Part shown: positions 5,472-29,346 of the stretch, one piece after another
Position numbering within the stretch: position 1 is the stretch's first letter
Layout of the letters: the number at the start of each line of letters is the position of its first letter
DNA from: Thelocarpon superellum
Lineage: Eukaryota
DNA: 44,599 nucleotides
Assembly: GCA_026025795.1 (NCBI GenBank)
Contig: JAPEUG010000109.1
Span: 1-44,599 of the forward strand
Direction of reading: 5' to 3'
The notes under the pieces: generated by a model
What the model was told of the DNA's origin: nothing
Seen by the model: the letters and a program-made list of their open reading frames with translations, nothing else
Database searches by the model: none
Translations under genes and position numbers: made by a program

Positions 5472-6681
5472 CTTGTGTGACGGACGAGAGGGAATACTCG
5501 AGGAATCGTAAACGCGAGAGATCAGTTTCGTCACTTGCCTCGATCCTCGCACATCAATGACAAATGACGCAGGCGAGAGCCAAAGGCTTTTGGGAAATGC
5601 AGGTTGAAGCGAAAGAATTTGGCGGTCGGGGTTCTTATGACGAGAGGGTGTGAAGGGGAAGAGCGTGACACAGGTGTGGTTGCGGTGGCAATGAAGTCAT
5701 TGGCATCGGAGCTTCTCGAGGTCAAAGAGATTGGCATCGCTGCCATTCCAGAGACCGGAACCGGATAGCTATCGAAAGGAGGCTGTTTAGGGGCTACGTC
5801 ATATCTCCGCCTGCCGAGAAGCGCGCCTCCGATCGCTTCCAAAATGAATTACGCGGTGGCGCAACGACCCAATCACTGCTCCCACGGCCTCTACAGCGAG
5901 ATCGAGCGATTCCCGTCGCAGGATCGTACGGTTACCCGATGGAGGGTAGAAGATCCAGGATCGCCGTAGCCGGAAAAGTTCGCAGGAACACTGAACGATG
6001 GCTATTATGCACAATGGCATGAGCAGCGTTAGTGTGCACTTCCTGATCGCGCTTCGACAGCCAGCGACCGTACAGCGTCCGGGCTGGGAACTAACGTTAC
6101 TAAGTAGAAGCTCTACTATGCCCTTTCGGCGAGCACCTGCGAAGCGACCATCCCTGCGCCAAGCGTGGTTTTGGAGGAGAGTCTCGTGACTCCTCTTCCT
6201 ATCCGACCGCTTGCATCTAATGCTCACGGCGCGGTCAGTGAAGCAGTGAACTGCTAACCCGTGTCAGAAAGGGGAGTAATCAGAGTAAAATCGAAGAGAG
6301 GACCGGTGGTAACCACAGCTGCAGAGAAGAATTGGAAAATGGTAGAGACATGCATCGGGGCCGTGAGGCACAGTGCATGGTACGGGACAGGCGAACCGCG
6401 CACTCAGAAACTTGAGCAATGGCCACAGTCCTCGTACCTGCGGGCCAAAAATGCCACCAAGGAGACATGCAAGAGTGGAGCTCGGTGGATTCGTCATACC
6501 CCTGCGGATGACTGCTTCCGCGACTGCGTACGAGTGCAACGATACAAATCCGCCTCGAACGGCGGAGGAATACGACGTGGCACGCGTACTCATACCTAGA
6601 AGGCCTCGCCTACGCCATAGCCGTCATGTCCAATAGTGGACGACTTCGCAGGGATTGGCGCGGGAGCCACACAGCATTGTC

Positions 6682-6759
6682 TCCGTTGCTCCGGATCCAC
6701 TCCGCCGCTAACATCGCTCCCCTCAACCGCCTCCACCCCGCACTCCACCATCACCCCAC
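6682..6759. promoter_or_regulatory. Candidate carbon-regulation elements upstream of acetyl-CoA synthetase (CreA-type SYGGRG cluster, one CSRE-like site)
   Basis: CYCCRS (reverse of SYGGRG) at 6700, 6731, 6736, 6743, 6754; TCCGTTGCTCCG at 6682-6693 is one mismatch from the yeast CSRE consensus YCCRTTNRNCCG; about 380-460 bp upstream of the ATG. Short motifs in C-rich DNA, so chance is possible. Confidence 0.3.
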
Positions 6760-7140
6760 TTCCGTTCTGACCAAGAAAAAGACCCAGGCCCAGCTGATCA
6801 GGCGGCCGGCCGTGGAACCGCTCCCCCATTGGATGAGGAAATGAACTCCTCCCCCCCATGTAGCTAGAGAGAAGAACCGGCCGGCGACGGGCCCGAGTTG
6901 TCTCCCGTTGGCCGTATCTCACTTGGTCGGTGCACGGTGCATGGTGCACGGGGCAGCTGCCAGAGCTCTTCGGGAAGCCGGACAAGTCATGACGGGAGCT
7001 GCCCCATCTCCCCTCTCTTCATTGTAGTTGGTGCCTGTTATTCGTAGACCATCCGCTCCACCGTCCATCATTTGCACTCGCCCATCGGCCCAAGCATCTG
7101 CAATTGTCGTGACAGCTCGCCCCTTCTGGTGTTCATCACC

Positions 7141-9552
7141 ATGTCTGACGGGACTGTGCAACCACCGGCCGTGGAGGAGGCACGCGAAGTTCAGACGGTA
7201 AGCGCCGTCTCCAGACGCCCCCACCAGAGGCCCTGCGCACGCAGAGCAGGGTGGAGCTGGCCGCGAACGGTGGCTGACACGATGGCGACGTAGTTCCAAG
7301 TGCCAAAGCCCTTCTTCGAGTGAGTGAATGGAGAGCACGGCGAGACACCGTCGCTCGGTCAGCCGGAGAACCTCCACTTTTGGTGGCTAACGTTGTCGTG
7401 CCAGCAAACACCCTTCGACACCACATCTCTCTGGGGTCGACGAATACCAGAAGCTATATAGAGAGTCGATCGAGCAGCCGGATGCATTCTGGGGTCGTTT
7501 GGCGCGCCAGTTGCTGACGTGGGAGCGCGACTTCGACACAGTGCACTCGGGCTCCTTCGTCAACGGCGACAACGCCTGGTTCCTCGGGGGCCGGCTCAAT
7601 GCGTCATTCAACTGCGTCGACCGTCACGCCATCAAGGACCCCGAGCGCCCCGCCATCATCTACGAGGCCGACGAGCCCACGGCCGGTCGCATCATCACCT
7701 ATGGCGAGCTCCTGCGCCAGGTGTCCAAGCTTGCATATGTGCTTAAGCAGATGGGCGTCAAGAAGGGCGACACCGTAGCCATCTATCTGCCCATGATTCC
7801 CGAGGCCATCGTCGCCTTCTTGGCATGCACGCGCATCGGTGCCGTTCATTCTGTCGTCTTCGCCGGCTTCTCTTCGGACTCGCTGCGCGATCGGGTCATC
7901 GATGCCCAGTCCAAGGTCGTCATCACCACCGACGAGGGCAAGCGCGGCGGTAAGATCATCGCGACCAAAAAGATTGTCGATGATGCGCTGAAACAATGCC
8001 CCGACGTCCGGCACTGCCTGGTCTTCCAAAGGACTGGCACCGACGTGCCATGGACCAAAGGCCGTGATTATTGGTGGCATGAGGAGCTTGAAAAGTACCC
8101 CGCCTACATCCCGCCCGAGTCCATGAGCGCCGAGGATCCGCTTTTTTTGCTCTACACCTCTGGCTCGACGGGGAAGCCCAAGGGCGTCATGCATACCACC
8201 GGCGGCTACCTGTTGGGCGCCGCGGCCACAGGCAAGTACGTCTTCGACATCCACGACACTGATAAGTTCTTCTGCGGCGGGGACGTCGGATGGATTACGG
8301 GCCATACCTACGTCGTGTATGCGCCCCTACTCCTGGGCGTGGCCACCGTCGTCTTCGAGGGCACGCCAGCCTATCCCGATTTCTCGCGGTACTGGCAGGT
8401 TATCGAGAAGCATCAGGTCACACAGTTCTATGTCGCCCCGACGGCCCTCCGTCTGTTGAAGCGTGCGGGCGACCATTTTGTCAGCCACCCGATGAAGCAA
8501 CTGCGCGTGCTCGGCTCCGTGGGGGAGCCCATTGCGGCGGAGGTATGGCAATGGTATCACAACATCGTCGGCAAGGAGGAAGCGCACGTGGTCGATGTAA
8601 GTGGCGGCACTTTCGTGGACAGTGACGCCTTGACTGACACTCGGTGCAGACGTACTGGCAAACGGAGACGGGATCGCACGTCATCACTCCCTTGGCCGGT
8701 GTGACGCCCACGAAGCCGGGAAGTGCCTCGCTACCATTCTTCGGCATCGAGCCAGCCATCATCGATCCCGTGTCAGGGGTTGAGATTGAGGGTAATGACG
8801 TCGAGGGCGTATTGGCGATCAAGAAGCCATGGCCTAGCATGGCTCGAACGGTGTGGGGCGCGCACAAGCGCTATATGGACACCTACCTCAATGTTTACAA
8901 GGGATACTACGTACGCGCGGCCTTGGCCGACCATCCCTGAGTCCACTCTGTAGCCTCGCTAACAGCATCACAGTTCACGGGCGACGGTGCGGCCCGCGAT
9001 CACGACGGATATTACTGGATTCGGGGCCGTGTCGACGATGTGGTGAATGTCAGCGGTCATCGACTGTCGACGGCAGAGATCGAGGCGGCGCTGATTGAGC
9101 ACCGTACGTATCTGGATCAAGATGATTTCGCGGCGCAACAGACTGATCATCCCGCAGATGCGGTGGCCGAATCTGCGGTGGTCGGCATCACTGACGATCT
9201 GACCGGCCAAGCGGTCAACGCCTTCGTGGCGATCAAAGACGGACACGAGGCTAGCGACCACTTGCGCAAGGAACTGATCATGCAGGTGCGCAAGTCGATC
9301 GGGCCCTTTGCCGCGCCCAAGGCCATCTACATCGTGCCCGATCTGCCCAAGACGCGCTCTGGCAAGATCATGCGCCGCATTCTGCGCAAGATCTTGTCGG
9401 GCGAGGAGGACTCACTGGGCGATACCTCGACGGTACGTGTGTCTCGTCTTTTCGTGCTAGCCAGCGCTCGGATGCGCCCTGACCGGCCATAGCTCTCGGA
9501 CCCTGGCGTCGTCGACACGATCATCGAGATCGTGCACACGTCCAAGAAGTAG
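7141..9552 (+). CDS. facA: Acetyl-CoA synthetase (AMP-forming; FacA/AcuA/Acs1 orthologue), 666 aa, 7 exons
   Basis: Exons 7141-7197, 7294-7319, 7405-8596, 8650-8910, 8974-9103, 9158-9432, 9493-9552 (2001 nt). Motifs [59 protein letters not shown]. Confidence 0.97.
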
Positions 9553-11351
9553 CTCGGTGTCACCACTGATACGAACGAGGCACCTATAGGAGCCAGGAGC
9601 GAGCCACGGCCAAGTCTACATGTCCGCGGAATGTGAAGGTACTCGGACCAATCGTGCTGTCTGTCAATCTGTGATGTTTCTTGTCCCTCTCTTTGATCAT
9701 ACCTTGCGTCCTATGTAGTGCCAAATTGATTGGAATCCTCTCATTCTCGTTCCCCAGCGACACATATGATGAAAAGGGAAGATCTCAGGATGAAGGCCTC
9801 GTGATGCGTGATTCCAAGACGCACCGTGTCTTTGTAGGCTCGGCGAAAAAGATGCGCGCACGTGACGTGGCATGATCCCGGATGCAGAAAAATAGCATCG
9901 TGTAGGAGCGCGCACGTGATCTGGTCACGTGTCCACTCCTATTACTATCCCAGACTATGCCTAGATTAGCAATTCAGCTCTGATTTCTACAATCGTCTAG
10001 ATTTCTTCATGCAGCGTATAAACAGCGGAACGGTGCAATTCGAGCTTCTCGTGGGGGCATCTCCTGTGTATGCGTCGGAGGAGTGGATGGCGCAGAGTCT
10101 CAAGGTAGTTATTGAGTCCCTGCCCAGCGGGGAGTAGGCAGTTGAAGTCTACTTCTAGCTCTTCCCGATAACTTCCTTGCTCTTATCGCAACAAACATGA
10201 GCTCGACAGGACGCCAACTACGGGACGAGCGGACCACGCATCAAAGTACTTCGTACTGAATCCCTCTCGTCTGATTGCCCACTACCACAGGTCCTCCGCT
10301 GGTGCGCAGACACAGTATTGGTTGGCACCCGTCATAGCTGTGAGCTAACGGTTGCAAACGTTAAACACCATGGCAAGGGGAGGGGCTAGGTCGGACGGGG
10401 ATGTTGTTGCATCTCGGTCCTTCATCACTGCCCGGGCGCTAGAGAACCCACCAAAGCCCCACCTTGACCAAGCACAAGGCTGCCCGAGTCGAGAGCCGTG
10501 TTTTCCGCAGCTGCGCGCTGGTCGTGGAGGGGTGTGTGATACCTGGCCAACCATTCGCTTACCGCCGCCTGCTTTCAGTCCATGGGCAACAGCGCACTGG
10601 CGACGGGCTAGACGGGGTGTTATAGATCTTTGCCTTGTCCGACCGGTAAAGGCAGCATTCGTATTCGAGCACGAGCCGGCCCCGCGACCTCTGTACGGTC
10701 GCTAGCATCGCACGCGTGCGGTACTCGTATCTTTTACGCTGTACGAGTACTTCGTACCGTAGTAGTTGATCGCGTCAGCGTTGCCCGTGGGCTTCGTCCG
10801 CAGCAACAGTTGCTCTAGTCACCTGCGCACGGGTGCCCAGGCGCGCCACCCTTTCGCTCGACGGGCCCCCGGCACCGGTCGCCGCGCAACGACCGAGGGC
10901 GGTGGGTACGAGATACGACATAGGCACAAAATAATAATAGTGCGTAGTTGACGAACTCGTACGCAGTCCTCCCCACCAGGAATGGTTAATGGCGTCCTTG
11001 CATTGTCGCAGGTCCTCGTAATAGCCTACACCCAACCAACCACGGCGTAGTTACCCGTCCGCCCTGAGTATTGTCGGCGTCAAATCAGCCCCAATCTCAC
11101 GGATCACTGCCACCAGCCTAAGCCACGCTCATACCGTCGACCGCGGCCAGCTTGCCTCTCGTTCTCGACCGCCTCCCCCCTCTCTCACTTACTACTTCAT
11201 CTCGCTCCCTTCGCTCATGTACACCACAACCTAACCAGCTTCGTTGCGTCGCACGTCGAGCGGGCGATCGATCGGCGGCGTGCCCGACTCTCCGACTCCT
11301 CGATCCTCCCATGGTGCTGGTCTGTACCACCACCCTCGCGCTCTCGTCACC

Positions 11352-13857
11352 ATGCATCTCTTTCGAGCCATCGTAACTCTCGCTATCACCGCAAGCCTGA
11401 TCATCTCCCCCATCCATGGTAAGACTTTTACCACGTCGTCGTGGACGTAGTCGACTGACGCACTCCGGCCAGCGCACTCCCAACGGCGAAAACCCTTACG
11501 CTATCTCTCGTTGGTGGAGGATCTTCGCATCCAGACGCCGTCGCACCGCGTCCATGCCTGGTCCTCGTTTGACCTGCTCTTCGATCTTCACCAAGGCCAG
11601 CAACAGATCAAGTTGACCCTCGAGCCCAATCACGACATCATCGCCGAGGGCGCGTCTGTGCAATATCTGGACTCCAACGGGGAGGTGTCGCGGATCGAGC
11701 CTATCGTCCGGGAAGACCACAAGGTGTACAAAGGAGAGACGTTCGTCGAAGATGACCGCGGGCACTGGCGGCATGTTGGCTGGGCACGGGTGGTCGTACG
11801 CCGCGATGGCATCCATCCGCTCTTCGAGGGCGCTTTCACCGTCATGAATGACGACCACCATGTGCAGCTGCGGTCCAGCTATATGCAGACCAAGCACGAG
11901 CTGGACCCAGATGCCGAGGCCACCGACGACGAGTACATGGTCGTCTTCCGCGGCTCCGACGTTGGCCTTCCCTACGCCACCGAGCTGAAGCGATCGTATG
12001 ACGACGAGCTGTTGTCCTGTACCGCCGACCGGCTGCACTTCAATGTGCAGCCCAACCATCCAGTATTCAGCAATGTCTTGCGCCGAGACACCCGCTTCTG
12101 GGGCGCCATGTCGACCGCATCGCTCTTTGGCAAGCGCCAGATCGACACCAACGGCATCCCCAGTGGCGGCGGCAACTCCGCCGGCGTCAACCTCAAATCC
12201 ACCATCGGACAGACGGCCGGCTGTCCTAATTCGCGCAAGGTGGCCCTGGTGGGCGTGGCGACGGATTGCGGCTACACGGGCTCCTTCAACTCCACCGAGG
12301 CGGCACGCCAGAATGTCATCACGCAGATGAACTCGGCCTCGACCGTGTACGAGAAGACATTCAACATCTCCCTTGGCCTGCACAACTTGACGGTCAGCGA
12401 TGCCAACTGCCCGGGGGCGGTACAGAGCTCGGCGCCATGGAACACGGCCTGCGCCGACAACACCACGATTCAGGACCGACTGAACAGCTTCTCTGCCTGG
12501 CGTGGCACCAAGGTTGACAACAACTCGCACTGGACCCTGCTCACGAAGTGCAACAGCGGCGCCGCCGTCGGCCTCGCCTGGCTCGGTCAGGCCTGCATCG
12601 CCACGGCCGACACGAGTAACTCCAACGAGACTACGACGGGCGCGAACGTCGTAGCTCGGACGTCTACGGAGTGGCAGGTGATTGCGCACGAGACGGGTCA
12701 TACCTTTGGCGCAGTACACGACTGCACCAGCCAGACATGTACCGATGGCACCACGGTCAACGCCCAGCAGTGCTGCCCCTTGAGCAGCAGCACCTGCGAC
12801 GCTGGGCAGCAGTACATCATGAATCCCTCCACCGGAGACGGCATCACCCAGTTCAGTGCCTGCACCGTCGGCAATATCTGCAACGCCATTGGCCGGAACA
12901 GCGTCAAGACGACGTGCTTGTCGGACAACAAGGGAGTGACGACCATCACCGGCAGTCAATGCGGCAACGGCATCGTAGAGACGGGAGAAGAGTGCGACTG
13001 TGGCGGACCTGACATCTGTGGTACCGAAAACTGCTGCGACGCGACGACGTGCAAGTTCAAGAATAACGCCGTGTGCGATGACGCCAATGACAATTGCTGT
13101 CATGGCTGCCAGTACGCCACGGCCAACACCGTTTGTCGCGCCAGCACCGGGCAATGTGATCCGCAGGAGGTATGCTCGGGCACCAATGGGACCTGCCCGC
13201 CGGACGTCAAGGCACCGGATGGTATGTACACCCGGCGACACGAGTCGAGGGATCGGACAACGAAGTCGCTGACCATGCTCGCTAGGCCAAACGTGCGGCA
13301 ACAGTTCGCTCAGCCTGACGTGCGCTAGCGGGCAGTGTACGTCGCGCGACCAGCAGTGCCAGACGCTGATGGGCTCCTTGACCTCCGACAACGATACGTA
13401 CGCCTGCGACTCGGAGAACTGTCAGATCTCGTGTGCCTCGCCACAATTCGGACCGAACACCTGCTACGGCATGCAGCAGAACTTCCTCGACGGCACGACG
13501 TGTGGTGGCGGGGGCAAATGCGCCAACGGACAGTGCCAAGGCTCGTCCGAGGCCAAGGTGATCGGCAGCTGGATCAGCAACAACAAGGGCCTGGTCATTG
13601 GTGTGGCATCGGCGGTTGGGGGGCTTCTCCTCCTGTCACTGCTGAGCTGCATCTGGCGATGCTGCAAGCAGCGACGACGAAGACCACCGGGCAGCAAGAT
13701 CATGTCGCCGTCATGGGGCCAACAGCCGCCGCCCTATTACAGTCAGATCCCGAAGCGCGGCCAGGCTCCGACGGGCAGCAATTACTCGACCGACGCAAGT
13801 CATTACTGGCAGCAGCCGCCAACATACCCCGCCGGGCCTAGCGTGCGCTACGCATGA
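11352..13857 (+). CDS. Fungal ADAM family metalloprotease (AdmB-like): signal peptide, prodomain, M12B domain, disintegrin, Cys-rich/EGF region, TM helix, Pro-rich tail; 795 aa, 3 exons
   Basis: Exons 11352-11418, 11473-13221, 13286-13857 (2388 nt). Zn motif HETGHTFGAVHD, Met-turn YIMNP, disintegrin start CGNGIVETGEECDCG, KR processing site FGKR|Q, TM GLVIGVASAVGGLLLLSLLSCIW. Confidence 0.94.
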
Positions 13858-14072
13858 GGGGGGTTGAGGAAGTGGGATTGGGACTCTGCACGGCGCCGAT
13901 GGCGATGGCATCGTTTCGGGCGTTTAATGGGGCATGAACATTGTTTGCTTGGGGCATCTCATATCATATGGGCAAGGCGGCATCTTGGGTCTGTAGGACG
14001 ACGACGACGACAAGGGATGGAAGCAAGGACGCTGGGCGGGGCACGGGGTGTACATGACAGGCTAGGCAAGCT

Positions 14073-14112
14073 AAGGCAAGGCAAGGCAAGGCAAGGCAAG
14101 GCAAGGCAAGGC
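14073..14112. repeat. (AAGGC)8 pentanucleotide microsatellite
   Basis: Eight perfect AAGGC units between the convergent 3' ends of the ADAM gene and the unknown gene. Confidence 0.95.
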
Positions 14113-14369
14113 ACGAGTGGCATATGGTCTCTTCGTCAGTGGACGGCTCTCTTCTGTGCATACTTTGATCATGTTGTCCATCGTCCTACCTCGCCACATA
14201 CTTACTCCCGTCTTCGCCGAGGATTCTATCGATAGATAGGTGGCAGATAGCACGAGTACGATACGAGTACGGAATGTGATTGATTGACTGCAAAGCCTGA
14301 TGATTCTCCCTACTATCTAGACTCTACTTTCCTTCGCCGATTGGCCGGGACAATGCAAATGAGCGTAAA

Positions 14370-16469
14370 TCACGATCTATCTTTTGCTTCCAACGCAGAC
14401 CCGACGGCAGCAGAAAGCGGCATGGTGTCATTCCTGTCCAATACCCCCTTTGCGATCCTGGCCTTGGTCTCAAGTAGGACATGCTGCCACGCGAAGACGC
14501 GGAGCGAGTCCGCCGTCCCGAGTGCCTCTGCCTCATACTTGGACCGCTCCCAGTGCGTGGCTATCTTCTCGTCCGTCTCGCGCATCTGGCGCGCCACGAT
14601 TGCCTCTTCGCCTTCTCGCTCCTCATCGGGATGTGCGAGGGGGAAGGCGTAGTGCTTGTGGCTTGCGAAGAGCCCGAGCGCGAGCCGGTCGTGATCGGCG
14701 GCAAGGAAGGTGGCGATGTGCTCTACATTGTTGGCGCACGCGTCGTCGTCGTGGACGGAGCTGGTGGTTGAATGTGGAGATGATGCCGCCATGTAGTCCA
14801 CGTAGGATCCGGCGATGCTGTTGCCCATTGCGATTATGTGTGGCGTATCTTGATCGGGATCGTGCAAGAGCTGGTCGGCGCTGACGTGCGAGACGTGCCA
14901 TGTGACCTTGTGGCCTAGCGTGAAGGGGGATGCGACCTCGGTGTCGTCTGCAGCTGCCATGTCTTTGAATTCTAGCCGTGCAAGAAAGAAGTTGGAGTGG
15001 AATCCTAACCGGAATCGTCAGGAGAGCCGATTCGGAAAAGGGGTCATTGGATAATGGGTCTTACCATGTTTGCAGAATCGTCTGTCAACCATAATAACAG
15101 TATCCTGGTCCCTGCTCCACATTTCTCGCAGCAGGAGATAGCCCACATAGCAGGGCATCGATGTGATGTGTTTCACCGATCTCTGCGTAGTCTGCGCTAG
15201 TAATCTGGGCACATCATCAGCAACGAAACCCTCTGCCTACGCCTGCGTCTGCTCTCACCTTCCAATGTTGGCCTTGGACAAAGACCTAGTCGCCATTGAC
15301 TGTAGCCATGCACAGCTCAGGTCCGCAAGCCAGATCTGCAGCGCTTGGAACTCCAATGCAACCTTTCGACCGGCATTCGCATGCTTGTAGTCTCGGACAC
15401 TGTAATCGATACAGTCTCGGACCAGCTCGATTCCATAGTCGGCTGCGGTGTTGGGGTCCAGTCGAGCGCCCACGACGTTCTGCAATCGACAGAAAACCTT
15501 GTACTTGGACAGAATGTATGAATATACCAGGAAGCGCGTGATGACTTTGACGTCAAGCAACTTCCATTCCGTGGTGATCAAGTCGTTCTCTTGCCCGGTA
15601 CTGGGGATGTCACCAAGCGAGGTCAGATGTAACAGCAACGCCTCAGAAGCCTCCTTTGACACTGCCTCATTCCCAGAGAATCGCGTTGAGGGCTTCGGCT
15701 CGCAGCAGGGCGCGTCTTCATGACTCAAGACGTATTGTTCCTGCCGGCTCGTGCCTTGAATTCGCCAGTTTAGCGCAACGACGCGGCGTGATCGTCTGAT
15801 CAGCAGGAGTACTCTCTTGGCAAAGTTCAGCGCGGAGCAGATGGTCCGGTAGAGGACGCCCTTTGGTCGAGGCAGATTGCTTGTTGTCTGCAGGAGCTCG
15901 CGCGACGAAGCCGAGGAAGAACGGTGCTCGTTTGCCCTAGTCGTCGACTGCAGCGCTACGAAATCGTTGTAAAGCGAGGCTGGCGAGGCGGCAAGGGAAA
16001 GTTCCAACCATTCCAGCGCCTTCAGGATGCCGTCGGGAGAGTCGTGTTTGGCCCCAAATCCAAGCTCCGATGGGTTGAATCGTCCGTGAGTGAGTTTTGA
16101 GCAAGCTTCCTTTGCTGCCTTGCGGACCTTGACCAACCTGTCTTGTGCTTCCACCAGCCATGAAGGCGTCGGGTCCTTGTCGGATTGGCAACCTTGCAGG
16201 AAGCCGCGATGAGCCATGACGACTTCCCTCAGCATGCCAGCTCGCAATTGGCACGATGTATCGCCCACGTGTGCGTCAAACGCCATGAAGCCGATTGAGT
16301 CCGGAGCATCGTTGCGTCCTAGTAGCAGGTCACGGAACAGATCCAGGGCATCAATTGCATCCGAGGAGCCTCGAATCACGTCTTTGAGAATTGCCGGATA
16401 AAACATTCTCTTCTGTGGGGTGCTGAACGCAGCGAAAGATGGGCAGGGAGGAAAAAGAAAGCTCGCCAT
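14370..16469 (-). CDS. Protein of unknown function, ~661 aa, 3 exons; probable cytosolic enzyme
   Basis: Exons 16469-15259, 15204-15065, 15004-14370 (1986 nt) joined by canonical introns 15258-15205 and 15064-15005, which fuse three separate ORF-track entries in frame. Globular blocks FDAHVGDTSCQLRA, RFLVYSYILSKYK, LADLSCAWLQ, MPCYVGY, DRRFCKHGFH, FASHKHY, FAWQHVLLET; no signal peptide. Start could be the downstream Met (MFYPAIL). Confidence 0.82.
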
Positions 16470-17723
16470 ATTCTTGCAGGGGCAACGATGTTTCGACGCA
16501 ATGAATGGATAAAAGATTTCAGGTACCCAAGGGGGAACGTAATTGTGACGTTGTGTCTGTGCCTGTCGATTGAGCGTGTTCGAGGTCGCTGCTAGCTTGA
16601 TGATTCGTCAGGAGCACCAAGAAATCTCACAGATGGCTTATATGATGATGACACTCCGTTCCTGTTTTGCCTAGCATCTTGGAGGTTCGGGAGCATCCGC
16701 AGCGGACGCCAATCGGCTCCCAAAGTGGCTTCCTGCGCCGAGACACGCTGGGGGGCTTCTTGGCTGAACCGTGGCCAAGGAGAATGGGTGAGACCATCCG
16801 AGGAGCGGCTGATGCTACGGCAAGGCTTGCCTCCTTTCAACCATCACAGCTCCAACGACGGCTGCGGCATGCATTGTGGCTGGCGCAGCAGCCGCTGTGT
16901 CTCCGTGGCTCCAGATGGTCAGCACGAGGCATCACGTCAAGGGACAGCACGTTGTAAAGATACGTGCCTACCCTTGTCGGGAGTAACATCGGCAGGGGTA
17001 CTGAGCCTCCACAACATTTGCCTTTCGGTGCCAGTCCAGTTCTTCCAGAGAGTCTTGGTCCAAATCGGCACTTCTGGCCGGAGGTGGGACTTTGACCAGA
17101 AGGTAGCATCGTCAGATCCGTGGCCAAGCACTTCGGCGTTGGAACCGCAAACTGAGACCCGGATTCAGGCGTCAACCACGCGGTCAAGAACGAAAAGTAT
17201 GTCTATGAAAGGGCTGGGCACTGATGGACACAGGAGAGCGCGGGGTTACACTTGGACAAACAAGGTGCTGAGAGCTGTGAGGTGGGACGTCGGAGGAGAA
17301 CGCTACGGTCGAAAATCCACATTGCCCAACTGACTGCTGCCCGGCTTAGCGAAGCGCGCGCTGGACCGTCGGCCTCCAGACTCTAAGCGGAAGGTTCCCC
17401 TCCCTATTCCTCCGCAGGCACAGGTAAACCCCTGGAGACGAGTAAGGCGAGAGGCGGAAGTGCCAAGGTCATCACTTACCTTTACACGAGCTGGCAATGT
17501 TTGTGTGGCCTCTCCAAGGCACAGTGCCCACGGTGCTATATAGCATGGGTTACTTGGTTACCGCTGCAATGGCTGCATCAGCTGGCCCCGAGAGCTTTGG
17601 TGCTTCTGTCTCCATCCCAAAGTCCACTCCCACGGTGACATCTCGAGCTCCAGACGTCCTGATCCAAGTGCAGCCAGAACAGAACGCACTCAAGATCCCG
17701 TACCAACAGTCATCTTCGTCGAA

Positions 17724-19729
17724 ATGGAGATCAATGCTCGGCCCTGGATTCTTCCTAATCTTTCACTGCACGAGTTCGGTGATGCTCATGACGCTTTCCG
17801 CCTTCTGGTCGTCTCGCTAGCTTCAGTCCTCTTCATCTCTATCTATCGGAGTCAGTGGAGTAATGTACGTTTCATGGCCTGTTCGAGCCTCCTGTTACTG
17901 CAATGCTCATACCTTCCCTCCGCAGGCCTCGGCCAGTTTCAAGAACAAACAGGGCCAACGCATCAAGGAGATCAAGGAGGACAGTCGATTCAGCCGATTC
18001 TCCCACGGGTTGGTCCTCCGGGGCCAGGGTCAATGGGCCACCATGCTGATCAGACCAGGCTTGAGCTGTCCCAGCAAGGCCAACGCCTGGCTGGAAGCGA
18101 ACCATATCTTGTTCGAAACGGTCGAAACAAGGAGCTTGTCATCAGCGCCCCGGATCAAGCCAGGGAGTTCTTCGCTCACGATGCCAAAGGTTAGCCCGCG
18201 AGCATCCTCTTCTACGAGCCTTGATGAACTGATCTTCGTTATAAGACCACATGAAGCCCGCGAATATGAACCTGGGCCACTACTTTGGACGGTACGCTAC
18301 AAAGTCAGGTCGGGTTCGGTGCTGGCCATTGTTTGACGCGAAATCTTACCTAGAGTTCTGGGAAACTGCGTGGGCGTTCAGGGCGGGGCCAAATGGAATT
18401 CGATGCGTGCGCTTTTCAACCCCGAATTCTCTCACCTGGCAGCGAAGAACATGATCCCACTTTTCACGCAAGAGTTCAGCAAGTGGGCGGCCGAGCTCTC
18501 GCAAGATGGCACAGTGGTATCAAAGGGAGAGGAGAAGTTTGTGATCGACGCCGCGGGCGCTTGTCGCATTCTGCCGTTTCGCCTCATTGCCAGAACATGC
18601 TACGGAAACATGCTCACGGACGAGGTACGGCTCCGCCTCAGGCGGGCAGCGACCCTGACTGACACATGTAGACCTTTGACAAGCTCTTGTCGTTCAATGA
18701 GGTGCACGAGCAGATCATGTGCCAGGCGGTATTTGGACGGTGGACAACTTCCAAGTATTATGGCATGCTCCCGACCAAGGCCAAGCGGCAGATGGATCAG
18801 TTCCAAAAGGGCTGGGAGGCCTTCAATCTGGATATAGTCGTGGAGGCGCGAAAGGTACGCCATGGCGTGGAGTGGAATCTCGCCGAGAGCTTACGTTGCA
18901 TACTGGCTAACACCTGACCCTAGAGCGGGACGTCGTGCCCGGCAGAGAAGATCTACGATGGAGTCGATCCCAAAGGAGACATCAGCAAGCAGGAGGTAGG
19001 TCTTCTGCCATGCCTCTCGGCTCGACCCTTGACCAGCGTGAGACTAAGAGGCTGGGCACAGTTCTTGGAAACGGTTGACGAGATCCTCTTTACCAACATC
19101 GACGTGACGTCGGCCGTGCTTGCCTTTGTCTTGATCAACCTGGCCGCGAACCGGCCCTTTCAAGACAAGCTTCGCACCGAGATCCGCGAGCAGCTAGCCG
19201 CCGCCAGTGGGGATATAGGCCATTATCTCGCCAAGACGGACACGCTGCTCAACTACGCCAGCATGGAATCCGTTCGTATGAGTCCAGCGGCATGTACGTT
19301 CTTGAACGCTCTCTTGGCAGCCGTAATGCCATCGTGCAAGAGACTAAAGCGCATCTAGGGTTTTCGCTGCCGGAGCGCACGGCCCAAGACAAGGTGATTG
19401 GCGGATATCTGATTCCCGCGGGCACGCCCGGCATCATCGACTGGAAGCGACTCAATACGCAATCCGAAGTGTGGGGTAGCGACGGAGAGACGTTCCGGCC
19501 GGAGCGATTCCTGGAGATCTCGCAGAAGCAGTACCGCTACAGCCTGCTCCGCTTTGGTGTCGGGCCGCGCAAGTGCCTGGGTAAGAACATGGCCGATGTC
19601 ATGATCAAGCTGGCCATGATCATCGTGCTCGAGAAGTATCACCTCTCGGGCGTGGACGGTCAAGTGGCGCTGCGGAAGGACCGCTTCACGTGCACGCCAC
19701 AGCAGCTGGTGAAGTTCTCCAAGGTTTAG
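17724..19729 (+). CDS. Cytochrome P450 monooxygenase, GliC-like secondary-metabolism type, 509 aa, 9 exons
   Basis: Exons 17724-17864, 17926-18008, 18059-18189, 18246-18291, 18354-18624, 18672-18854, 18924-18995, 19062-19293, 19359-19729 (1530 nt). N-terminal TM anchor; heme motif FGVGPRKCLG; ExxR (ESVR); PERF; atypical I-helix DEILFTNIDVT lacking the usual AGxxT. Confidence 0.93.
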
Positions 19730-20820
19730 TAGCTGCCGAGTAAGCGGGTAGACAGGAAGGTGTGATGGCTATGCATTGGAGGAGGGTTTACGTGAACCGA
19801 ATGGGTGCAGTAGGTAGAGGCGATTATGTCCGACAAGAAGAGCCAGCATTTCCCGATCAGGAGGCCAAGCATCCAATCGAACATTTAACGAGCCGTTGCG
19901 CGCGTAGGATTTCCAGGTGAAACAGGCAGCGCACTGATCAACAACTAAGCCATGTTGGCGCTCCCTCTCCGTCCCTCCCCTCCACTGCCCTCTTTCCCTA
20001 ACGGGAAGGAAGTTTGACAGGAGAGCAGAGCGAAGGTGAAGACGACAAGAAGAGGACAAGGAGAAGGTCACGCTGGTACGACAAGGCCCCGTCCTGCGCC
20101 CGGCCATCGCCCACCCAGTCCCTCTCCCTAAGCAGGGTGGGACGTGGATTCGGTAGGAGGAGCGTCTACACCAGACACGGTATCGTGCTTGCCGGGCTGG
20201 GTGCACCGCCCACCCTTCCACTAGCGATCCTTCCTCTTGCCGGTCTACCCGTCTCGTGGCGTACTCGAGGCCTCACTTTGACATCCATGTTCCACCCGAC
20301 ACATTCCTGGCTTATCCCACCGGCCTCTCCTCTACATTCATGCCATGGGACGACATGGATCTAGAGCGCCATTGCATTTAGCTTGCTCGTTTCGGGAGCC
20401 TTTATATTTGTAGCGCATGATTCTCCATATAGCAGTCCCGTCGTCGCTGAAACGGAGTCGACCCTACGACGGTGTTACCGCAACGGCTAGAGGTCGCTAA
20501 CCAGGTTGCCGAACCGATGGTTGGCTTCCCTCCACGCACGCGCACCAGCTCGTGCTAGCCCTAGGAACGCTTATCGCGGACTTGATGCTTGGAGTTTCTC
20601 ATCCTTCGTCAAGCGCGACTTTCTTGCAATGCCACAAATGCCGTGAGGTGAAACGTGATGGAGGCTGCACTGACCTCAACTACGCTCGTCGTTTCGAGGA
20701 GCTATATAGACGGTGGCTCTTCATCTTCGCTCGAGGCTGGTGCCCACCGATCTCTTCATTCTCCCGATCGTTTCCTCAAGCAGACTCCGTCAACTACCGG
20801 GCATGGTAGCTTCGCCCACA

Positions 20821-22221
20821 ATGCTTACCAGACATCTCTCTCTGCTGCTCTCTCTCACTCTGCTGCTGCCGCATCTCTCCTTGGGAGCTCTCTCAGCGCC
20901 GCGACCAGATGTGCTTGCAGATTCGGCCTGGTGGTACCGACGAGACCTTGAATCTATCGGTACGGTGAACACGAAGGATGGTGCTGAGAACTTGACCAGC
21001 AGCGGAGTAGAGACGAGCGGCAGCGAGACACCTCAATCATCCGAGGCTCTTGATTTGAACGCACTGCTCGGTGGTGTGCCAGAGAACGGCAGCGGCAACG
21101 ACGTCACCGATCATCTACCCGGCTTCGTCCTCCAATCGAACAATCAAAGCGGGACCGCGTCACTACCCGCAGCCGATGCTACTGAGAACGCAAATACCAC
21201 CTCGACGAGCTACCGCTTGCGATACAATTGGCCCAACGGGACCAACAGCGTTACTGCCGATAACGTCACGTTGGAGGGCGAACATGTCGTGGGCAGGAAT
21301 CTCGTCCAAGATATAAGACAGATGCTGGCGTATGCACAAGCCCAACCGGCGACGTCAGCCTCGACACATCTCGAAGCGATTGGCGGGGAGCTGACTATGT
21401 ACGTGTGGGCGAGTGCCTCGAACCCGAACTCTTACCTCAACTGGACCGGAGTCGGACAGATCATCCAGGTCTTTCTCGACCGAATGTCCTCACTCGATCC
21501 GACCCAAGTCAACGCGACCTTTGTTGGCGTCGTCGAGCCGAGTCAGGGGCAGGAAGAGGCGGCTACCGGCGACGCGGACGCGCCTCGGGCTCCCCTCTTC
21601 TACGTGATGATGCATCGACCGTTTTTGGAGGTGAATCTGACAGCGGCCGAGGTGGCCGCGACCAACCTTACGGTTCCAGGCCTGCCCGATGACGACGTGG
21701 AAGTCTCTGGTGGCGCCGCCCGGACTCTCAAAGCGAGCTATGTCTCCAAGAGCGGGCCGGGTTCCGTATATTCGATCCAGGACACAGATGTGGCCATGAC
21801 CGCGTATCGATTTCAGTGGTATACGTGGACCACGGTGCTTACCTCCATGGCCGTGGCAGTCACGAACGAAGCCAGACGTCGCAGTTTGGACTTTATCAGT
21901 CGGGACACGTTCCAAGGCTACCGACAACTCGCGGTGAGAGGCAAGCGTGGGTATTGGATTCAGTTCACGCTGGCGCAAGGCACAACCTGGAGTGCTAAAC
22001 GCTGGCAGCTCATCACCGACCTGATCAACAAGCTGGTGCGTAACGAGGCGGAAGATAGCGACCTGAGCCCCGTCCTTGGCGTCCGAAGGATGTATGCGAT
22101 GGGTGGCCAGTTCTTCGGGCCCGACGGCAGCGTCATTGGCACGTGGGGGTTTCGTAAGGGCTCGCCGACGGGATGGTGCTCGTCTTTTGGTTGCCTCGGT
22201 CAGGCTGTGGTGGGAGATTAG
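20821..22221 (+). CDS. Orphan secreted glycoprotein, ~466 aa, intronless
   Basis: Long uninterrupted ORF; signal peptide from ATG 20821 (MLTRHLSLLLSLTLLLPHLSLG-A); Kex2-like YRR|D; many N-x-S/T sequons; low-complexity N-terminal part then two globular segments. Confidence 0.75.
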   Translation: MLTRHLSLLLSLTLLLPHLSLGALSAPRPDVLADSAWWYRRDLESIGTVNTKDGAENLTSSGVETSGSETPQSSEALDLNALLGGVPENGSGNDVTDHLPGFVLQSNNQSGTASLPAADATENANTTSTSYRLRYNWPNGTNSVTADNVTLEGEHVVGRNLVQDIRQMLAYAQAQPATSASTHLEAIGGELTMYVWASASNPNSYLNWTGVGQIIQVFLDRMSSLDPTQVNATFVGVVEPSQGQEEAATGDADAPRAPLFYVMMHRPFLEVNLTAAEVAATNLTVPGLPDDDVEVSGGAARTLKASYVSKSGPGSVYSIQDTDVAMTAYRFQWYTWTTVLTSMAVAVTNEARRRSLDFISRDTFQGYRQLAVRGKRGYWIQFTLAQGTTWSAKRWQLITDLINKLVRNEAEDSDLSPVLGVRRMYAMGGQFFGPDGSVIGTWGFRKGSPTGWCSSFGCLGQAVVGD

Positions 22222-22938
22222 AGTCGAGCAGCTTACTTGCATGCTGGTCGCTTGACAGAAGGAGACCACAGCACGATCCAGCACCTAGCCACTCCCCCCC
22301 CTGAGCGTACGAGCACGAGTATCGGTTCCTTGCCCCGCCCAAGTCATCACGCGGTGAGCATAGGCATCCGTGTTGGTTGGCTGGCTGGCTGGCGGACGCT
22401 TCATATCGGCCTGCTACATCAGGACAGGCACGGGGCGGGGCGAGGGATTGGCCATCTCGACGGGTACAGTGGTAGGATAGGTCAAGTCAAGTGACTACTG
22501 CGACTATCTCTATTTTCTGTCCCTCTCACCCTCACCCTCACCGCCACCGCCTCCGCCCACGTCGCTGTCGCTATCAGTAGTGTCGGTGTTGGTTTTGCTG
22601 TGCCGTCTCACTGCCTGCATATGCAAGTATCCGTATCTCGTCGACTTTTCGGCATGTTGCTCCCCTGGTGCAGTCTCAGTGTTGGTGGCGGCTGTTCGTG
22701 ACACCTGGCGAGCGCGTGTCCTCGTCTCATCCCCACTCCTCGCAGTTCGACTCAACGCAATTGCTATCGCAATCGAAACTTGTATTCTTCTGATTAGGCC
22801 ATGAGATATACGGTCCATGGAATGGGCAGAAATGGCCTGATGTAGAGGGGATCAGCCAATCCCCTGGGTTTTTCCAATGCCGTTGTCGTGGAGATTGCCA
22901 TATGCTCTCTCGCCAGTCTCGCTTCCTTCTCCTTTCAT

Positions 22939-24628
22939 CTACCTAGCCTTGAGGCTACGTAGTCTCCAGGCACAGTGGATGAGAACCGAGCCGAATATCA
23001 TCGAAGTGCCCGGAAAGATGATGAGACCGAGGAATGAGCCATGCGAGCCGTCCAGAATGGCTCCTTGGATGGGAAGGCCGGTGAGCGATCTGCACGGCAC
23101 CCCCTCGACATGTCAGCTTGGTCCCATAGTCATGCTCGGGAAGGAAATTGCGGGGAACGGGAGGACAAACGCAAAGGCCACGACGTTCATGGTGCTGCCG
23201 AGCATGACACCCAGGTTCTCCGTCTTGCCGTCGCACAGATCCACAACACATGGTGTCATCAGGCTGACAAACGCACCGCTTGCGAAGCCGAAACCGAGCG
23301 TAAAGATAATGAGACCGGCCATGGAGCGATGGTAGTTCAGTGGTAGCCAGATGCCGAGCACGAGAATGCCAGAGGCATACGCCATGGTGGTCATGACGGC
23401 AAAGTGCCCCAGTCGGTCCGCAATGTGCGACGGGAGGACTCGCCCAGGGATCGAGGCGGCACTGGTGGGCGTCAGCATGCCATCACGCCATACACCATGT
23501 GCCATTACATCAAGCTTACTTCGTGATCGAGACAAGATACAGGGCAATCTTAGCCGAGTCCTCGCTCTGCGACGCGAAAAGCGCCATGAAGTTGAACGGG
23601 CCGAATACACCCCAGCTATCTCCGAGTCAGTCAATCGACGTAGCCCGGGAAAGAGCCAAACGTACAAGAAGAGAAAGGCCCCGGAGACATAGAGCAGAAA
23701 TGGCGGGGAGCGAAAGGCAGCCAGACTGGCAATCGACCGCTTTCCTTGCCAGCCCTTGGGCTTGTGGAGCGGCGAGATGAGAAGATTGGCCGCAACAAGC
23801 AGGATGCCTAGCATGAGTGCGGTCCAGCGAAGGGTCGGGGCAAACCCAATCCGATCGAAAAGTGTGGTGAGGAAGATGGGGAAGACGACGCCTCCTGGAA
23901 AGGCCGAATTAGCGCTGGCTCGGTCAAGGGGCCGATCAAACCCACCGAGCGAGGATCCGCTGGCCACAACACCCACGGCAAGCGCCCTTTTCTGGTGAAA
24001 GTACTGCCCGGCGACGACGAGTCCTGGATGGAGATCCAATCAGCTCTTGTAACGGCTCGCACTCGGCCGGCTGGTCAACGAACCTGGCATGAAGACCCCG
24101 GCCGCTCCGACACCGAAGCAAACGCTCTGTGCCAGGAAGATCTGCCAATACTCGGTGCAAAAGCTCAATGTCAGTACCCCCAGAACCACTAGCACTGATG
24201 CCGGGATCATGACCGGTCGCGGGCCGTACATGTCCACCAAGAGACCAACGGCTTGAGACAGGAAGAACATGAGGAACAATTGAAAGGTCAAGATCCAGGA
24301 GATGGACGAGGATGAGTAGGTAGTCAAGATGACTTCTTCATATTGAAATTGGAAAATTCCCAGACTGGGCTTGTCAGTCCATTGCCCTCTTCTCCTGCGT
24401 GGGAAGGGCGCATCAGGGTGCGGACGGGAACACTGACGCATTGATGAAGCCAAACGAGCAGAATTGACAAAGAAAGCCTCCGAGCACGGCTAACCAGGCC
24501 TGCGTTCCGCCATCGGGCGGGACAGCCTGCGTTGGTGCGACTGGCACGACTTCCTCTGCTTTCTCCGTGCATGCTGGAGCCAGGTCGCAATCCTGGCCCG
24601 GTCGGAGTTCCTTCGCGCTTGACGCCAT
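22939..24628 (-). CDS. MFS transporter, monocarboxylate porter (Mch/MCT) family, 438 aa, 7 exons
   Basis: Exons 24628-24438, 24364-24084, 24023-23946, 23894-23666, 23615-23520, 23461-23171, 23089-22939 (1317 nt). Family signature PDGGTQAWLAVLGGFLCQFCSFG; motif-A-like GLLVDMYGPR and IADRLGH; QYFHQKRALAVGVVASGSSLGG. Confidence 0.92.
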
Positions 24629-25303
24629 CCTACAAGCATAAGAGAGAGGTGATGAAGGGAGAGCAAGATATCGTGTTCAGCTGGGACGATAACAAGCTGG
24701 GTCGGACCAGACCATTTTGTATCGTTTTGAGCATCTCTCGAGCGTATAAGGGCGATGCCCACAGGCATCGCATCTCTTGTGCCTCCGGGCTCTGAACAGC
24801 GGTCATGATGGAAATCGGCCTCTCAACCGTCTCGGACAAGAATTACTCAAGTAGGATCATCCGGACCTGTGGTTCTGGGCCCAGGTATCTGGGGCTGACA
24901 GCAGCCCGGAGGCAAGGGTCGCCCGGCCCGCCGCTTGAGCTCTCCGCTCGCACGGTCCATGGACGAGCAACATAGGACTAGCTGATGCTTTCGGACATGG
25001 CCTGAATAGGCTCAACTGGAGGCGACAGGCTGTTGGGCCTCTGTTGCGCCACTGGAGTGAAGATGCTTCAACGGATCATGGGTGTCCAACAGGCTGCACC
25101 TGTCTCGGCCGTGTCTCGGGCGATGCAACTTGACAGGGCTGCACGTAAGCAAACTCGCCTTTGTTGGAGGGATTCAGGAAGGTCCCAACTTGGCACGAAG
25201 CACTGTGTTCGAGTCCTCTCGTGAGCTCTCGCTTACTAAGAACCCACGGCAGTACCAACCAATAATTTGGTTATCGTACCCTTTACCTCTCACCTGCACC
25301 GGT

Positions 25304-26130: not shown

Positions 26131-27489
26131 TCACGCAAAAGTTCCATCCTTGTACTTTGACTGGGACATGGGCTGCAGGTCATGGGGATTGGCCGAGGTC
26201 TGCCACCACGAGTTCTGGAAGACAAAGTTCGGGTGACCACCTTGGTTGAAGTTGATCCCGCTATAATCCCCCAGAGTGCCGGCGGGGCCCTGAAGCGGTG
26301 GGGCAAACCCAGGGCGAGGCGGCTGCTGAACGATCCAGCAATCGATCAGGGTGGCCGGCGTGGCCGACCCCACCAACCCATATTGTGCAAAGTCGCCATT
26401 CGTCGTCATTCCCTTGACGGTGAAGTTGCTGTTGTTCTCCGTCCCAATCACCGGCAAGATGCTCCCTCCCACGGTCGATTCACCAAGGCCGAGGTTGTAG
26501 CCCACCACCGTGTGCCTGTTCAGTTCGATCGCGCCGAGGGAGTCAGTGGAGAGGATGCCGTCGGATTCCAGACGCGAAAAGTCCCACGTGGCGCCATTGT
26601 ACTGGCCGGGATCGGGCCGACTGATGTGCGTCGGGTCGCTGTCATCGAAGCCCCAGCAGCCATGGTGGGACTGGCGCCATGCGGTCCGGTTGTAGCCTTC
26701 GGGCACTTGGAAGGTCACTGTCGTGCCGTCCACGGCCGACATGCGTGCATACGTCCATTGCTCGCCCTGGTCGATCCAAAAGGTGCCGCCCAGGATGGTG
26801 AAGCCGGGAGATTGGTTGATGTACAGCATCTGGCCCGGTCGCCGATCGAGATTCTCCGGCGTGATCTGAATGACAAAGGTGACGCCGCGGAGGTCGAGCG
26901 TCCAGCCGCCGTCGTAGAACTGAATCACGATGTTCGTGCCCGGGAAGGTGTTGGTGTCGGAATTGGCGGGGTGCACGGGCCCTAAATTATACGTGTAGAG
27001 GCCGGGCTTGATCTTGAGGAACTTCGACGGGAGCTTGTTGGCCTTTTGCTGCTCGCCCCACGCTTCGAAGGCCAGAGTGTCAAAGTTGATCCCGTCCGGG
27101 GGCGTGTAGATCGCTGCGCCCTCGGGCACCGGATCGAGAGGCGTCGGAGCGCACCAGTTGTCCCCGTTGATGGGGAAGCTCGCGGGACCGACTGGCGACA
27201 GCGTGCCAGACGCACAGGAAAGTTGAGTGAACCCCGGGCCTGGGGCAGAGGGCGACGTCCCGATAGCCGCCGCCGCCGCCTCCGTCCCGGTGGGAGTGGC
27301 CGAGTCTCCCGCAGGCGCATCGGACGACGAGCTACCTGGCGCGGAAGATACTGCTGATGACGAGCTGGCTGCGGCAGGGCTACCGTCCGGATTGACCATG
27401 ACCCATTGGATGTCGCAATTGTCGTCGGCGATCGGGGCACCAGAGACCAAGGCAGCCAGCAGGCCGAGCACAAGGGGAAGATTCCTCAT
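26131..27489 (-). CDS. Secreted protein, probable right-handed beta-helix (pectin-lyase-like fold), 452 aa, intronless
   Basis: Signal peptide MRNLPLVLGLLAALVSG-AP; Ser/Ala/Pro linker; beta-helix-like pattern LKIKPGLY...WTLDLRGVTF...GFTILGGTFWIDQGEQWTYARMSAVDGTTVTFQVPEGY...NNSNFTVKGMT. Coding status is solid, the fold is an inference. Confidence 0.75.
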   Translation of the reverse strand: MRNLPLVLGLLAALVSGAPIADDNCDIQWVMVNPDGSPAAASSSSAVSSAPGSSSSDAPAGDSATPTGTEAAAAAIGTSPSAPGPGFTQLSCASGTLSPVGPASFPINGDNWCAPTPLDPVPEGAAIYTPPDGINFDTLAFEAWGEQQKANKLPSKFLKIKPGLYTYNLGPVHPANSDTNTFPGTNIVIQFYDGGWTLDLRGVTFVIQITPENLDRRPGQMLYINQSPGFTILGGTFWIDQGEQWTYARMSAVDGTTVTFQVPEGYNRTAWRQSHHGCWGFDDSDPTHISRPDPGQYNGATWDFSRLESDGILSTDSLGAIELNRHTVVGYNLGLGESTVGGSILPVIGTENNSNFTVKGMTTNGDFAQYGLVGSATPATLIDCWIVQQPPRPGFAPPLQGPAGTLGDYSGINFNQGGHPNFVFQNSWWQTSANPHDLQPMSQSKYKDGTFA

Positions 27490-28959
27490 GATGAAAGGTA
27501 GTAGGGAATGACTGCACCAAGATGGAGTCTACACAAGACCTAATGGGTATGAATGAACGAAGGAGCTGTAAGAGCTTGGACCACAGGCTCAGCCCGGTCA
27601 CAAAAGGAGGACGAAGTCTAACGAGTAAGGAACGTGATGACCGCCCTCGAGCCGGTTGGAGATGAGAGGATGAGGATGAAGTGAACGGCCTCGCACCGAC
27701 TGCTGGCGGGGCTGGCCATCGACCTTCATATACAATGACCCATCAGGAAATGAGCACAACTTGGCTGGCGCTTATACAGCCCGTCCATGCATCGATGCAA
27801 TCAGTTATGTTTGTGTCAAACTTATGTACGTTCAAGTTGCGATTTGATCTGGTGATTTCCCAGCCGTGCCCCCCTCGGCAGTATTGCCGTTGTTGGACGT
27901 GCTAGAGTGGCGGTGGGGTGACAGCAGAGGCACCTAGAAGGCGGCAAGACGTCAATGACAGCGAAGAAAATAGGCTTCCTTGGCTAGTGAATGTTTCATC
28001 CGATCGGCGGCACCAGCCGCGCCGCCCCTGAATTTGCGGCGTGCTCCCGCCAAACGAGATGACCGACAAGCAAAAGGCTGCAAGGGTGAAATAAGCGAGC
28101 CGGTCTGTGGCAAGCACACTTCTAACGAGGATCATTACCCGTACTGATGTCTGCAAACTGCCCATTGCACCCATCATAGGTGCGAAGACAAAGAAGTGCA
28201 TGTCGTAACGTGTCAGGTACTGAGCAATCACCCTGTTGATAGCATGACTAGTAGTCAAGAGCATGGTCTATGGATCGACCCGATAGTGCTGTGAAGGGAA
28301 CCATCACTCATGCGTCGTCGCATTGTTCGTCAGAGAGAGCAGAGTTTGGAAAGACAACCTCCCTAAAGACAGGCGCCTTGTCTTCACGGAGGTTTCGTGC
28401 GGCTGGCGCAGGTGGTCGAGCTGCCGTAGATGTCTGTTCCACGGGTCGGCGAAGCGCAAGCCGCACTACGCTTACGAGGTGCAGCCAGGCGGCCAGGCTT
28501 TGCACCAACGCTTCCTCATCTCGGCAACACGATCTCGCGTGAGCTACTCCGGAGCTACTCGGATTTGTGTCCAAATTCTTCCAAGTTGAAGGGAGTGAGT
28601 ACTTGGGGAACTCTGGCCCCCTCTACACCCTCCCACAAAACCTCACCGGAGACCGATCGAGGAAGAGGTGAAACTCTCCGTTTCGGAACTCCTTCTGATC
28701 TCTACTCGACCACGGTTCCTCGTCCGCCTGAAAGATGGGATTTGTCCGGCTCGTTGGCCCCAACTCTTTGTTCTCACCGTGTACCGATCATTTTCGGTTT
28801 GACTTTACTCGAGTTCATTCAAGTGCATCTGATGTCCCTCGACTCAACGCAAGCTGAAGATAAACACATGTGTGAACCCAAGCAATACATGACTCTCTCC
28901 CCTCCCTCTCCGATCATCCCCTCTCCTTTCCCCCTCCCTGCCCTCATTTTTCCTCCTTT

Positions 28960-29300: not shown

Positions 29301-29346
29301 CGCAAGGAACGGGGCCACTCAGACGCAAGGAACGGGGCCACTCAGA
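29301..29346. repeat. Perfect 23-bp tandem duplication including the ssn6 stop codon
   Basis: CGCAAGGAACGGGGCCACTCAGA at 29301-29323 and 29324-29346; the ssn6 TGA (TCA on + strand) is at 29342-29344. Confidence 0.95.

Follow-up and report, generated by a model that had tools for sequence, protein, structure and literature searches.

A candidate two-gene cyclodipeptide pathway resembling yeast PUL1/PUL2 in the filamentous ascomycete Thelocarpon superellum

What would a fungal protein with no recognised domain make when its gene lies head-to-head with that of a cytochrome P450? The question is raised by contig JAPEUG010000109.1 of Thelocarpon superellum (assembly GCA_026025795.1), whose 44,599 nucleotides (nt) are the window analysed here. 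A preliminary description had proposed that an unassigned 661-amino-acid (aa) protein builds an amino-acid-derived scaffold that the adjacent P450 tailors. That division of labour stands as the most likely arrangement, supported by homology to yeast Pul1, a Pul2-like I-helix and P450 linkage in a second locus; the enzyme class has a precedent in yeast PUL1 and PUL2. We put at about 0.7 the probability that the pair forms a two-gene route to cyclodipeptides in a filamentous ascomycete, similar to that of yeast PUL1/PUL2 and independent of nonribosomal peptide synthetases (NRPSs). The published yeast pathway makes pulcherriminic acid and is encoded by KLLA0_C19184g/KLLA0_C19206g in Kluyveromyces lactis and MPUL0C04990/04980 in Metschnikowia pulcherrima. 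The central features of the window are:

14370..16469, minus strand: Pul1-family putative cyclodipeptide synthase, 661 aa (exons 16469-15259, 15204-15065 and 15004-14370)
16242..16277, minus strand: N-terminal motif D65-A-H67-x-x-D70-x-x-C73-x-x-R76 (Cys73 codon 16253-16251)
14658..14660, minus strand: invariant His566
14469..14483, minus strand: C-terminal strand with His625 (14483-14481) and Glu629, from conservation
16470..17723, no strand: divergent intergenic region, 1,254 bp, with a TATA-like TATATA at 17537
17724..19729, plus strand: cytochrome P450, 509 aa, nine exons, from gene model, Pfam and motifs

Family membership of the Pul1-like protein

The divergent pair was as previously described, with a gap of exactly 1,254 bp between two uninterrupted frames. 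The two introns of the Pul1-like gene (54 and 60 nt, both GT-AG) leave a single terminal stop in the joined frame, and the spliced product matches Candelaria and Candelina proteins at 43–44% identity over ~660 columns of a homologue alignment; this splice model and that of the P450 are predictions from the sequence and homologue alignment. Pfam matched none of the three exons, reached at best E = 0.07 with any of 14 homologues and assigned no family to the Pul1 proteins of K. lactis and M. pulcherrima, and a sequence search of the PDB returned no match at E ≤ 10.

Of 5,158 candidates, a search with exon 1 picked out 33 relatives, each of them unnamed or hypothetical and dispersed across Pezizomycotina. 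When 1.84 billion representatives were searched with a profile of 14 of these relatives, 229 clusters (50% identity) matched at E ≤ 0.001. Taxon names, looked up for 30 of the 150 profile matches listed, comprised moulds, mushrooms, chytrids, Basidiobolus, Calcarisporiella and one bdelloid rotifer record; one record outside the yeasts, a Psilocybe protein, is auto-named 'putative cyclodipeptide synthase PUL1' in the database. Two unnamed matches (E = 4e-26 and 1e-15) used as queries led to nine proteins, including a K. marxianus protein named PUL1 and K. lactis KLLA0_C19184g, which is PUL1 (PMC6851878). Scored with a hidden Markov model of eight yeast-type sequences, the window protein reached 91.0 bits (E = 4e-30; best of 200 shuffles, 5.9), and profile–profile alignment with hhalign gave 99.89% (E = 7.2e-33) over 431 columns with both ends covered. 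Pairwise identity to yeast Pul1 is low (21–28%, in local segments). On these profile comparisons the window protein is a full-length homologue of yeast Pul1, and Pul1-family motifs can be assigned in what had been called a protein with no assignable motif.

Conservation was counted over the rows carrying a residue at each column (46–48 for the invariant ones) of 50 aligned. Asp65, His67 and Cys73 are invariant (46/46), as are His566 and His625 (48/48 each), while Asp70 (44/46), Arg76 (43/45) and Glu629 (45/48) are nearly so; the five invariant residues are common to yeast and non-yeast members of the family and are all retained here. A further Cys/His set, C448, H453, H535 and C540 (15075-14850, minus strand; C540 in 42/42), is kept in non-yeast members and absent from yeast Pul1; it may bind zinc and be a hallmark of the non-yeast form. 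The window protein also has a variable insert, with low predicted local distance difference test scores in the model of one relative, P0002 (residues 167-272).

A quick tree without a root was built from 47 of 196 proteins, chosen for having a name or being close to full length. In it the window protein falls within a group of 27 rows, and every named member of that group belongs to Pezizomycotina (SH-aLRT, an approximate likelihood ratio support, 97). Seven yeast-type rows form a separate long branch (SH-aLRT 100), and the remainder are basidiomycete and early-diverging rows. The grouping fits a single old fungal family with many losses, albeit in an unrooted tree. One protein (P0132), whose database record gives the bdelloid rotifer Adineta steineri as its source, clusters with mushroom sequences (SH-aLRT 100), which would reflect either gene transfer or contamination. 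Strict patterns derived from the fungal proteins gave 88 matches in prokaryote genomes (two patterns) and 56 in viral contigs, none of them a relative.

The P450 partner and the comparison with known systems

Does the P450 resemble its yeast counterpart as well? Its nine exons (17724-17864, 17926-18008, 18059-18189, 18246-18291, 18354-18624, 18672-18854, 18924-18995, 19062-19293 and 19359-19729) are separated by eight GT-AG introns of 47–69 nt, and the product carries a hydrophobic anchor at its N-terminus, ExxR and PERF motifs, a Pfam p450 match (E = 8.6e-22, last exon) and the heme motif FGVGPRKCLG (19553-19582), the sole P450 heme motif in the window. The I-helix reads DEILFTNIDVT (residues 315–325; 19077-19109), one residue from the DEILFANIDVT of M. 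pulcherrima Pul2 (supplement of PMC12342472); the motif, earlier given the provisional label 'GliC type', is therefore equally a Pul2 motif. Two ungapped blocks compared by eye are 19/44 and 16/41 identical to M. pulcherrima Pul2, and 16/44 and 16/41 identical to a P450 linked to a Pul1-family gene in another locus (L002, below). On motif and block similarity we provisionally place the window P450 in one subgroup with these two, making no claim of orthology to Pul2. In yeasts PUL2 belongs to family CYP5251 and co-occurs with PUL1 (PMC6723986).

A metagenome scan returned 17 loci with a Pul1-family gene, of which three are of ascomycete type, two of these shorter than 2 kb. The third, L002, holds a homologue, an O-methyltransferase and a P450 within ~8 kb (3413-11434). 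A translation-factor gene lies on one side and a Yju2-like gene on the other, and further on comes an FAD-binding oxidoreductase (13190-14872). Its P450 is 29–36% identical to that of the window and has the same I-helix type in a different gene layout; judged by gene content, L002 is a richer variant of the same cluster.

The preliminary description had found no NRPS, polyketide synthase (PKS), terpene cyclase or isocyanide synthase in the 44 kb, and we likewise detected no such domain by Pfam among 29 distinct open reading frame (ORF) pieces drawn from 268 ORFs of at least 80 aa. Six-frame scans of the window yielded no NRPS T-domain or PKS ketosynthase motif, and the sole match to a C-domain motif lies in intergenic DNA.

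The pair thus shares with yeast PUL1-PUL2 full-length core homology, the same five invariant polar residues, a neighbouring P450 with the same I-helix and the lack of a canonical NRPS, but differs in having an intron-containing gene in a filamentous ascomycete, a protein ~180 aa longer with a variable insert, the C448/H453/H535/C540 set and only 21–28% local identity. Compared with the full PUL cluster (PUL1–4), no PUL4-like regulator was seen in the window and its major facilitator superfamily (MFS) gene is at most a putative counterpart of PUL3; a Zn2Cys6 motif of the PUL4 kind was absent from all six frames bar one Cys-run artefact, although an intron-split motif could escape such a scan. 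On present sequence evidence, then, the core protein is a Pul1-family member that would work as PUL1/PUL2 do, and our claim does not extend to a full PUL cluster.

The intergenic region contains an inverted triplet pair, CGG-N9-CCG (17066-17080), that resembles Zn2Cys6 factor sites as a sequence pattern only, and a 245-codon stop-to-stop frame in this region had no Pfam match. The GC content at third codon positions (GC3) is 0.66 for the Pul1-like gene and 0.72 for the P450, at the low end of the window genes (0.67–0.81), a difference that is not diagnostic.

Active-site chemistry and competing explanations

How might such a protein form a peptide bond? In the pathway we favour, the Pul1-family protein, in which no transmembrane stretch was found, would act in the cytosol to join two activated amino acids into a diketopiperazine, as homology to Pul1 suggests. 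The donors would most likely be aminoacyl-tRNAs, as in bacterial cyclodipeptide synthases (CDPSs) and fungal arginine cyclodipeptide synthases (RCDPSs), because no adenylation or other ATP-using domain was detected; the main alternative is a peptide donor. We propose Cys73, at a helix start, as putative nucleophile and His625 as putative general base: activated by His625, Cys73 would take the first aminoacyl group as a thioester, the second activated amino acid would attack it, and the dipeptidyl intermediate would then cyclise. The membrane-anchored P450 would oxidise the ring, either through N-oxidation and aromatisation, the route of Pul2, or through hydroxylation at carbon. The product may be pulcherriminic acid or an analogue that bears different side chains. 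Joint control of the two genes would come from their common upstream region.

The proposed chemistry draws on predicted structures. In the models of P0002 and K. lactis Pul1 a helix starts at the equivalent of Cys73 (C70 and C78, respectively), and the Asp three residues before it (D70) is found at the same spacing in OTU proteases; the starts of the aligned ranges imply an insertion of two to four residues before the Cys. On the last strand, the invariant His (H455 in K. lactis Pul1) aligns with His265 of OTUB1 in both models and with His151 of nairovirus vOTU in five entries, a register taken from the first and last aligned residues that assumes a gapless end and a numbering offset of +1000 in 4ddg. 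Structural alignment with OTUs (OTUB1, nairovirus vOTU, Wolbachia and Simkania) covers 110–193 residues. The D-x-x-C at a helix start and the last-strand His in register with the catalytic His are thus likenesses to OTU deubiquitinases, and the conserved residues hint that the Pul1 family borrowed a cysteine-protease active site. We lean, with something better than even odds, towards OTU/papain-like thioester chemistry at Cys73-His625.

Several further results bear on this reading of the core and the locus. The Asp/Asn that OTUs carry two residues after the His is missing, the family alignment having a hydrophobic residue there and a near-invariant Glu at His+4, and Foldseek found nothing at E ≤ 0.001 in the PDB and viral libraries. 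With one defining residue absent and the fold score inconclusive, we did not file the protein as an OTU deubiquitinase. Matches from VIA-align were mostly helical bundles over the N-terminal hairpin; in one listing every match was of this sort (nuclear receptors, G-protein-coupled receptors and further helical folds), and OTUs were missing from it. Structures of CDPSs and RCDPSs did not appear among the matches listed, which does not rule them out. Leads from the ESM Atlas (Mak10/NAA35 for P0002, dsrm for Pul1), all below 0.9, were rejected as noise. At the level of the locus, the other 14 metagenome loci (L004-L017), one tight and distant agaricomycete-like group 71–84% identical to relative P0172, showed no P450 match or heme motif in DNA of 1.2–17.6 kb each. 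P450 linkage is therefore not universal, and the co-localisation sought by the preliminary description is borne out in L002 but not in these 14, where the family suggests a stand-alone, possibly multi-copy use; one of them, L010, adjoins kinase-like ORFs.

These 14 loci are the common ground of two other explanations. If the adjacency were incidental, the Pul1-family gene acting alone or being a decaying relic and the P450 belonging elsewhere, it would also make sense that direct observation of linkage is limited to a single additional locus, in another layout and with a P450 just 29–36% identical. The head-to-head arrangement, the rare I-helix signature common to the window P450, Pul2 and the L002 P450, the lack of a second heme motif in 44.6 kb, the intact frames with all conserved residues and the co-occurrence of PUL2 with PUL1 in yeasts make this distinctly unlikely. 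The protein could instead be a Pul1-related, OTU-fold cysteine hydrolase or transpeptidase on peptides or proteins, not a tRNA-dependent synthase, which clips and cyclises a dipeptide from a peptide donor, or performs an unrelated acyl transfer, with the P450 using that product or another amino-acid-derived substrate. A Cys/His core of the OTU-like type has the architecture of a protease, the window protein showed neither a tRNA-binding nor a CDPS motif, and the literature leaves it undecided whether Pul1 takes leucine free or charged on tRNA. Yet the sole member with genetic evidence gives cyclo(Leu-Leu) when expressed in another organism, aminoacyl-tRNA is the substrate of the two further classes of cyclodipeptide synthase that work without NRPSs, RCDPS also needing a Cys (PMC11610942), and large conserved insertions surround the core, so that we consider a hydrolase unlikely, if somewhat less so than chance adjacency.

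The preliminary description had also invoked AnkA-type enzymes and the xanF/xanG pair, and a locus of either kind, an RCDPS or a fragment of a xan-like isocyanide cluster, would follow the similar logic of a Pfam-less hypothetical protein beside a tailoring enzyme. RCDPSs (AnkA/AvaA) are fungal hypothetical-protein cyclodipeptide makers with a reported essential Cys (PMC11610942), but their DDxxE motif (PMC11610942) is absent from the 661 aa of the window protein and from any conserved column of the Pul1 family, whose conserved residues are Cys/His-centred; this separation, by motif and not by sequence comparison, led us to reject the filing. XanF has a methyltransferase domain and XanG is Dit2-like (bioRxiv 2020.07.23.217810), whereas the window protein has no Pfam domain and no isocyanide synthase domain occurs among the 29 ORF pieces; here the distinction rests on descriptions. 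With the positive assignment to Pul1, neither precedent holds, and such a locus is very improbable. The bacterial CDPS YvmC with P450 CypX shows the same two-step logic, its Bacillus product being that of yeast PUL1/PUL2, but CDPSs are reported as non-homologous to Pul1 (PMC11610984). The window protein has no CDPS Pfam match. It also lacks the CDPS motifs, and was not filed there. The pathway of the PUL1/PUL2 kind remains our preferred explanation.

Gene neighbourhood and implications

Both flanks agree with the earlier account of an ADAM protease and an orphan secreted protein, the former by Pfam and the latter by a hydrophobic N-terminus. The neighbouring genes are:

left flank of the Pul1-like gene: ADAM/reprolysin-disintegrin metalloprotease (Pfam)
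20710-22221, plus strand: orphan protein (~470 aa) that begins with a hydrophobic stretch and lacks a Pfam match, between the P450 and MFS genes; GC3 0.67, like the Pul1-like gene
22940-24700, minus strand: multi-exon MFS transporter (Pfam MFS_1), 3.2 kb past the P450 and beyond the orphan gene
26131-27528, minus strand: second apparently secreted protein, with a Ser/Ala-rich linker, no Pfam match in the exon
29342-31400, minus strand: tetratricopeptide repeat (TPR) protein with a long Pro-rich tail and weak TPR Pfam matches

The MFS gene, overlooked in the preliminary description (~22.9-24.7 kb) and presumably similar to a monocarboxylate-type carrier, is a possible exporter for the pair; the TPR protein we take to resemble the Ssn6/Cyc8 co-repressor. 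An AMP-binding gene at 7.4–9.5 kb is of the acetyl-CoA-synthetase type (ACAS_N domain), and the domains that Pfam recognised among the ORF pieces include acetyl-CoA synthetase, MUG190-like, ribosomal L3, weak TPR and MFS. The 3' end of the Pul1-like gene and the ADAM gene have a short GGCAA tandem repeat between them (14071-14112).

A near-identical strain was present in three of the four DNA runs examined, moss metagenomes from one study (depth ~2–5 across 11000-23000), a hint of a moss-associated fungus. Within 40 of the 75 strain differences, nine codons were changed in the Pul1-like gene (four silently) and eight in the P450 (three silently). None of these changes introduced a stop or touched an invariant residue, and they are too few for an estimate of selection.

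Reviews of 2022 and 2025 hold Pul1 to be unrelated to CDPS, with mechanism and substrate unknown (PMC11610984, PMC12715866); the relevant part of a preprint models Pul1 without naming a fold or active site (bioRxiv 2025.03.18.643849), and the PUL cluster is described in yeasts only in extracts of PMC7409158 and PMC10833146. Among papers open without subscription, none came up that treats PUL1 homologues from filamentous fungi, or the fold or mechanism of Pul1; the original PUL paper or its supplements may already report filamentous homologues, and the family link by itself is modest news. It nonetheless turns a pathway known from a few yeasts into a patchy family across fungi that lacks a Pfam model and that domain-based cluster mining would therefore miss, and it names two testable residues (C73 and H625 here, C78 and H455 in K. 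lactis) and a candidate fold, for which a yeast pigment assay exists. Such loci are candidate sources of new diketopiperazine metabolites, some of which might chelate iron.

More tentatively, and at somewhat less than even odds, Pul1 may be the only studied representative of a class of cyclodipeptide synthases that spans the fungi and works without NRPSs (229 clusters, found in chytrids, mushrooms and moulds alike). The class would share a Cys-His core like that of OTU deubiquitinases, turned to making peptide bonds through aminoacyl thioesters. This locus would then be a minimal filamentous-fungal pathway of synthase and P450, without a Pfam-recognised core domain, leading to an undescribed oxidised diketopiperazine. 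If true, a protease fold would have been reused for peptide-bond synthesis, a third structural solution beside those of CDPS and RCDPS.

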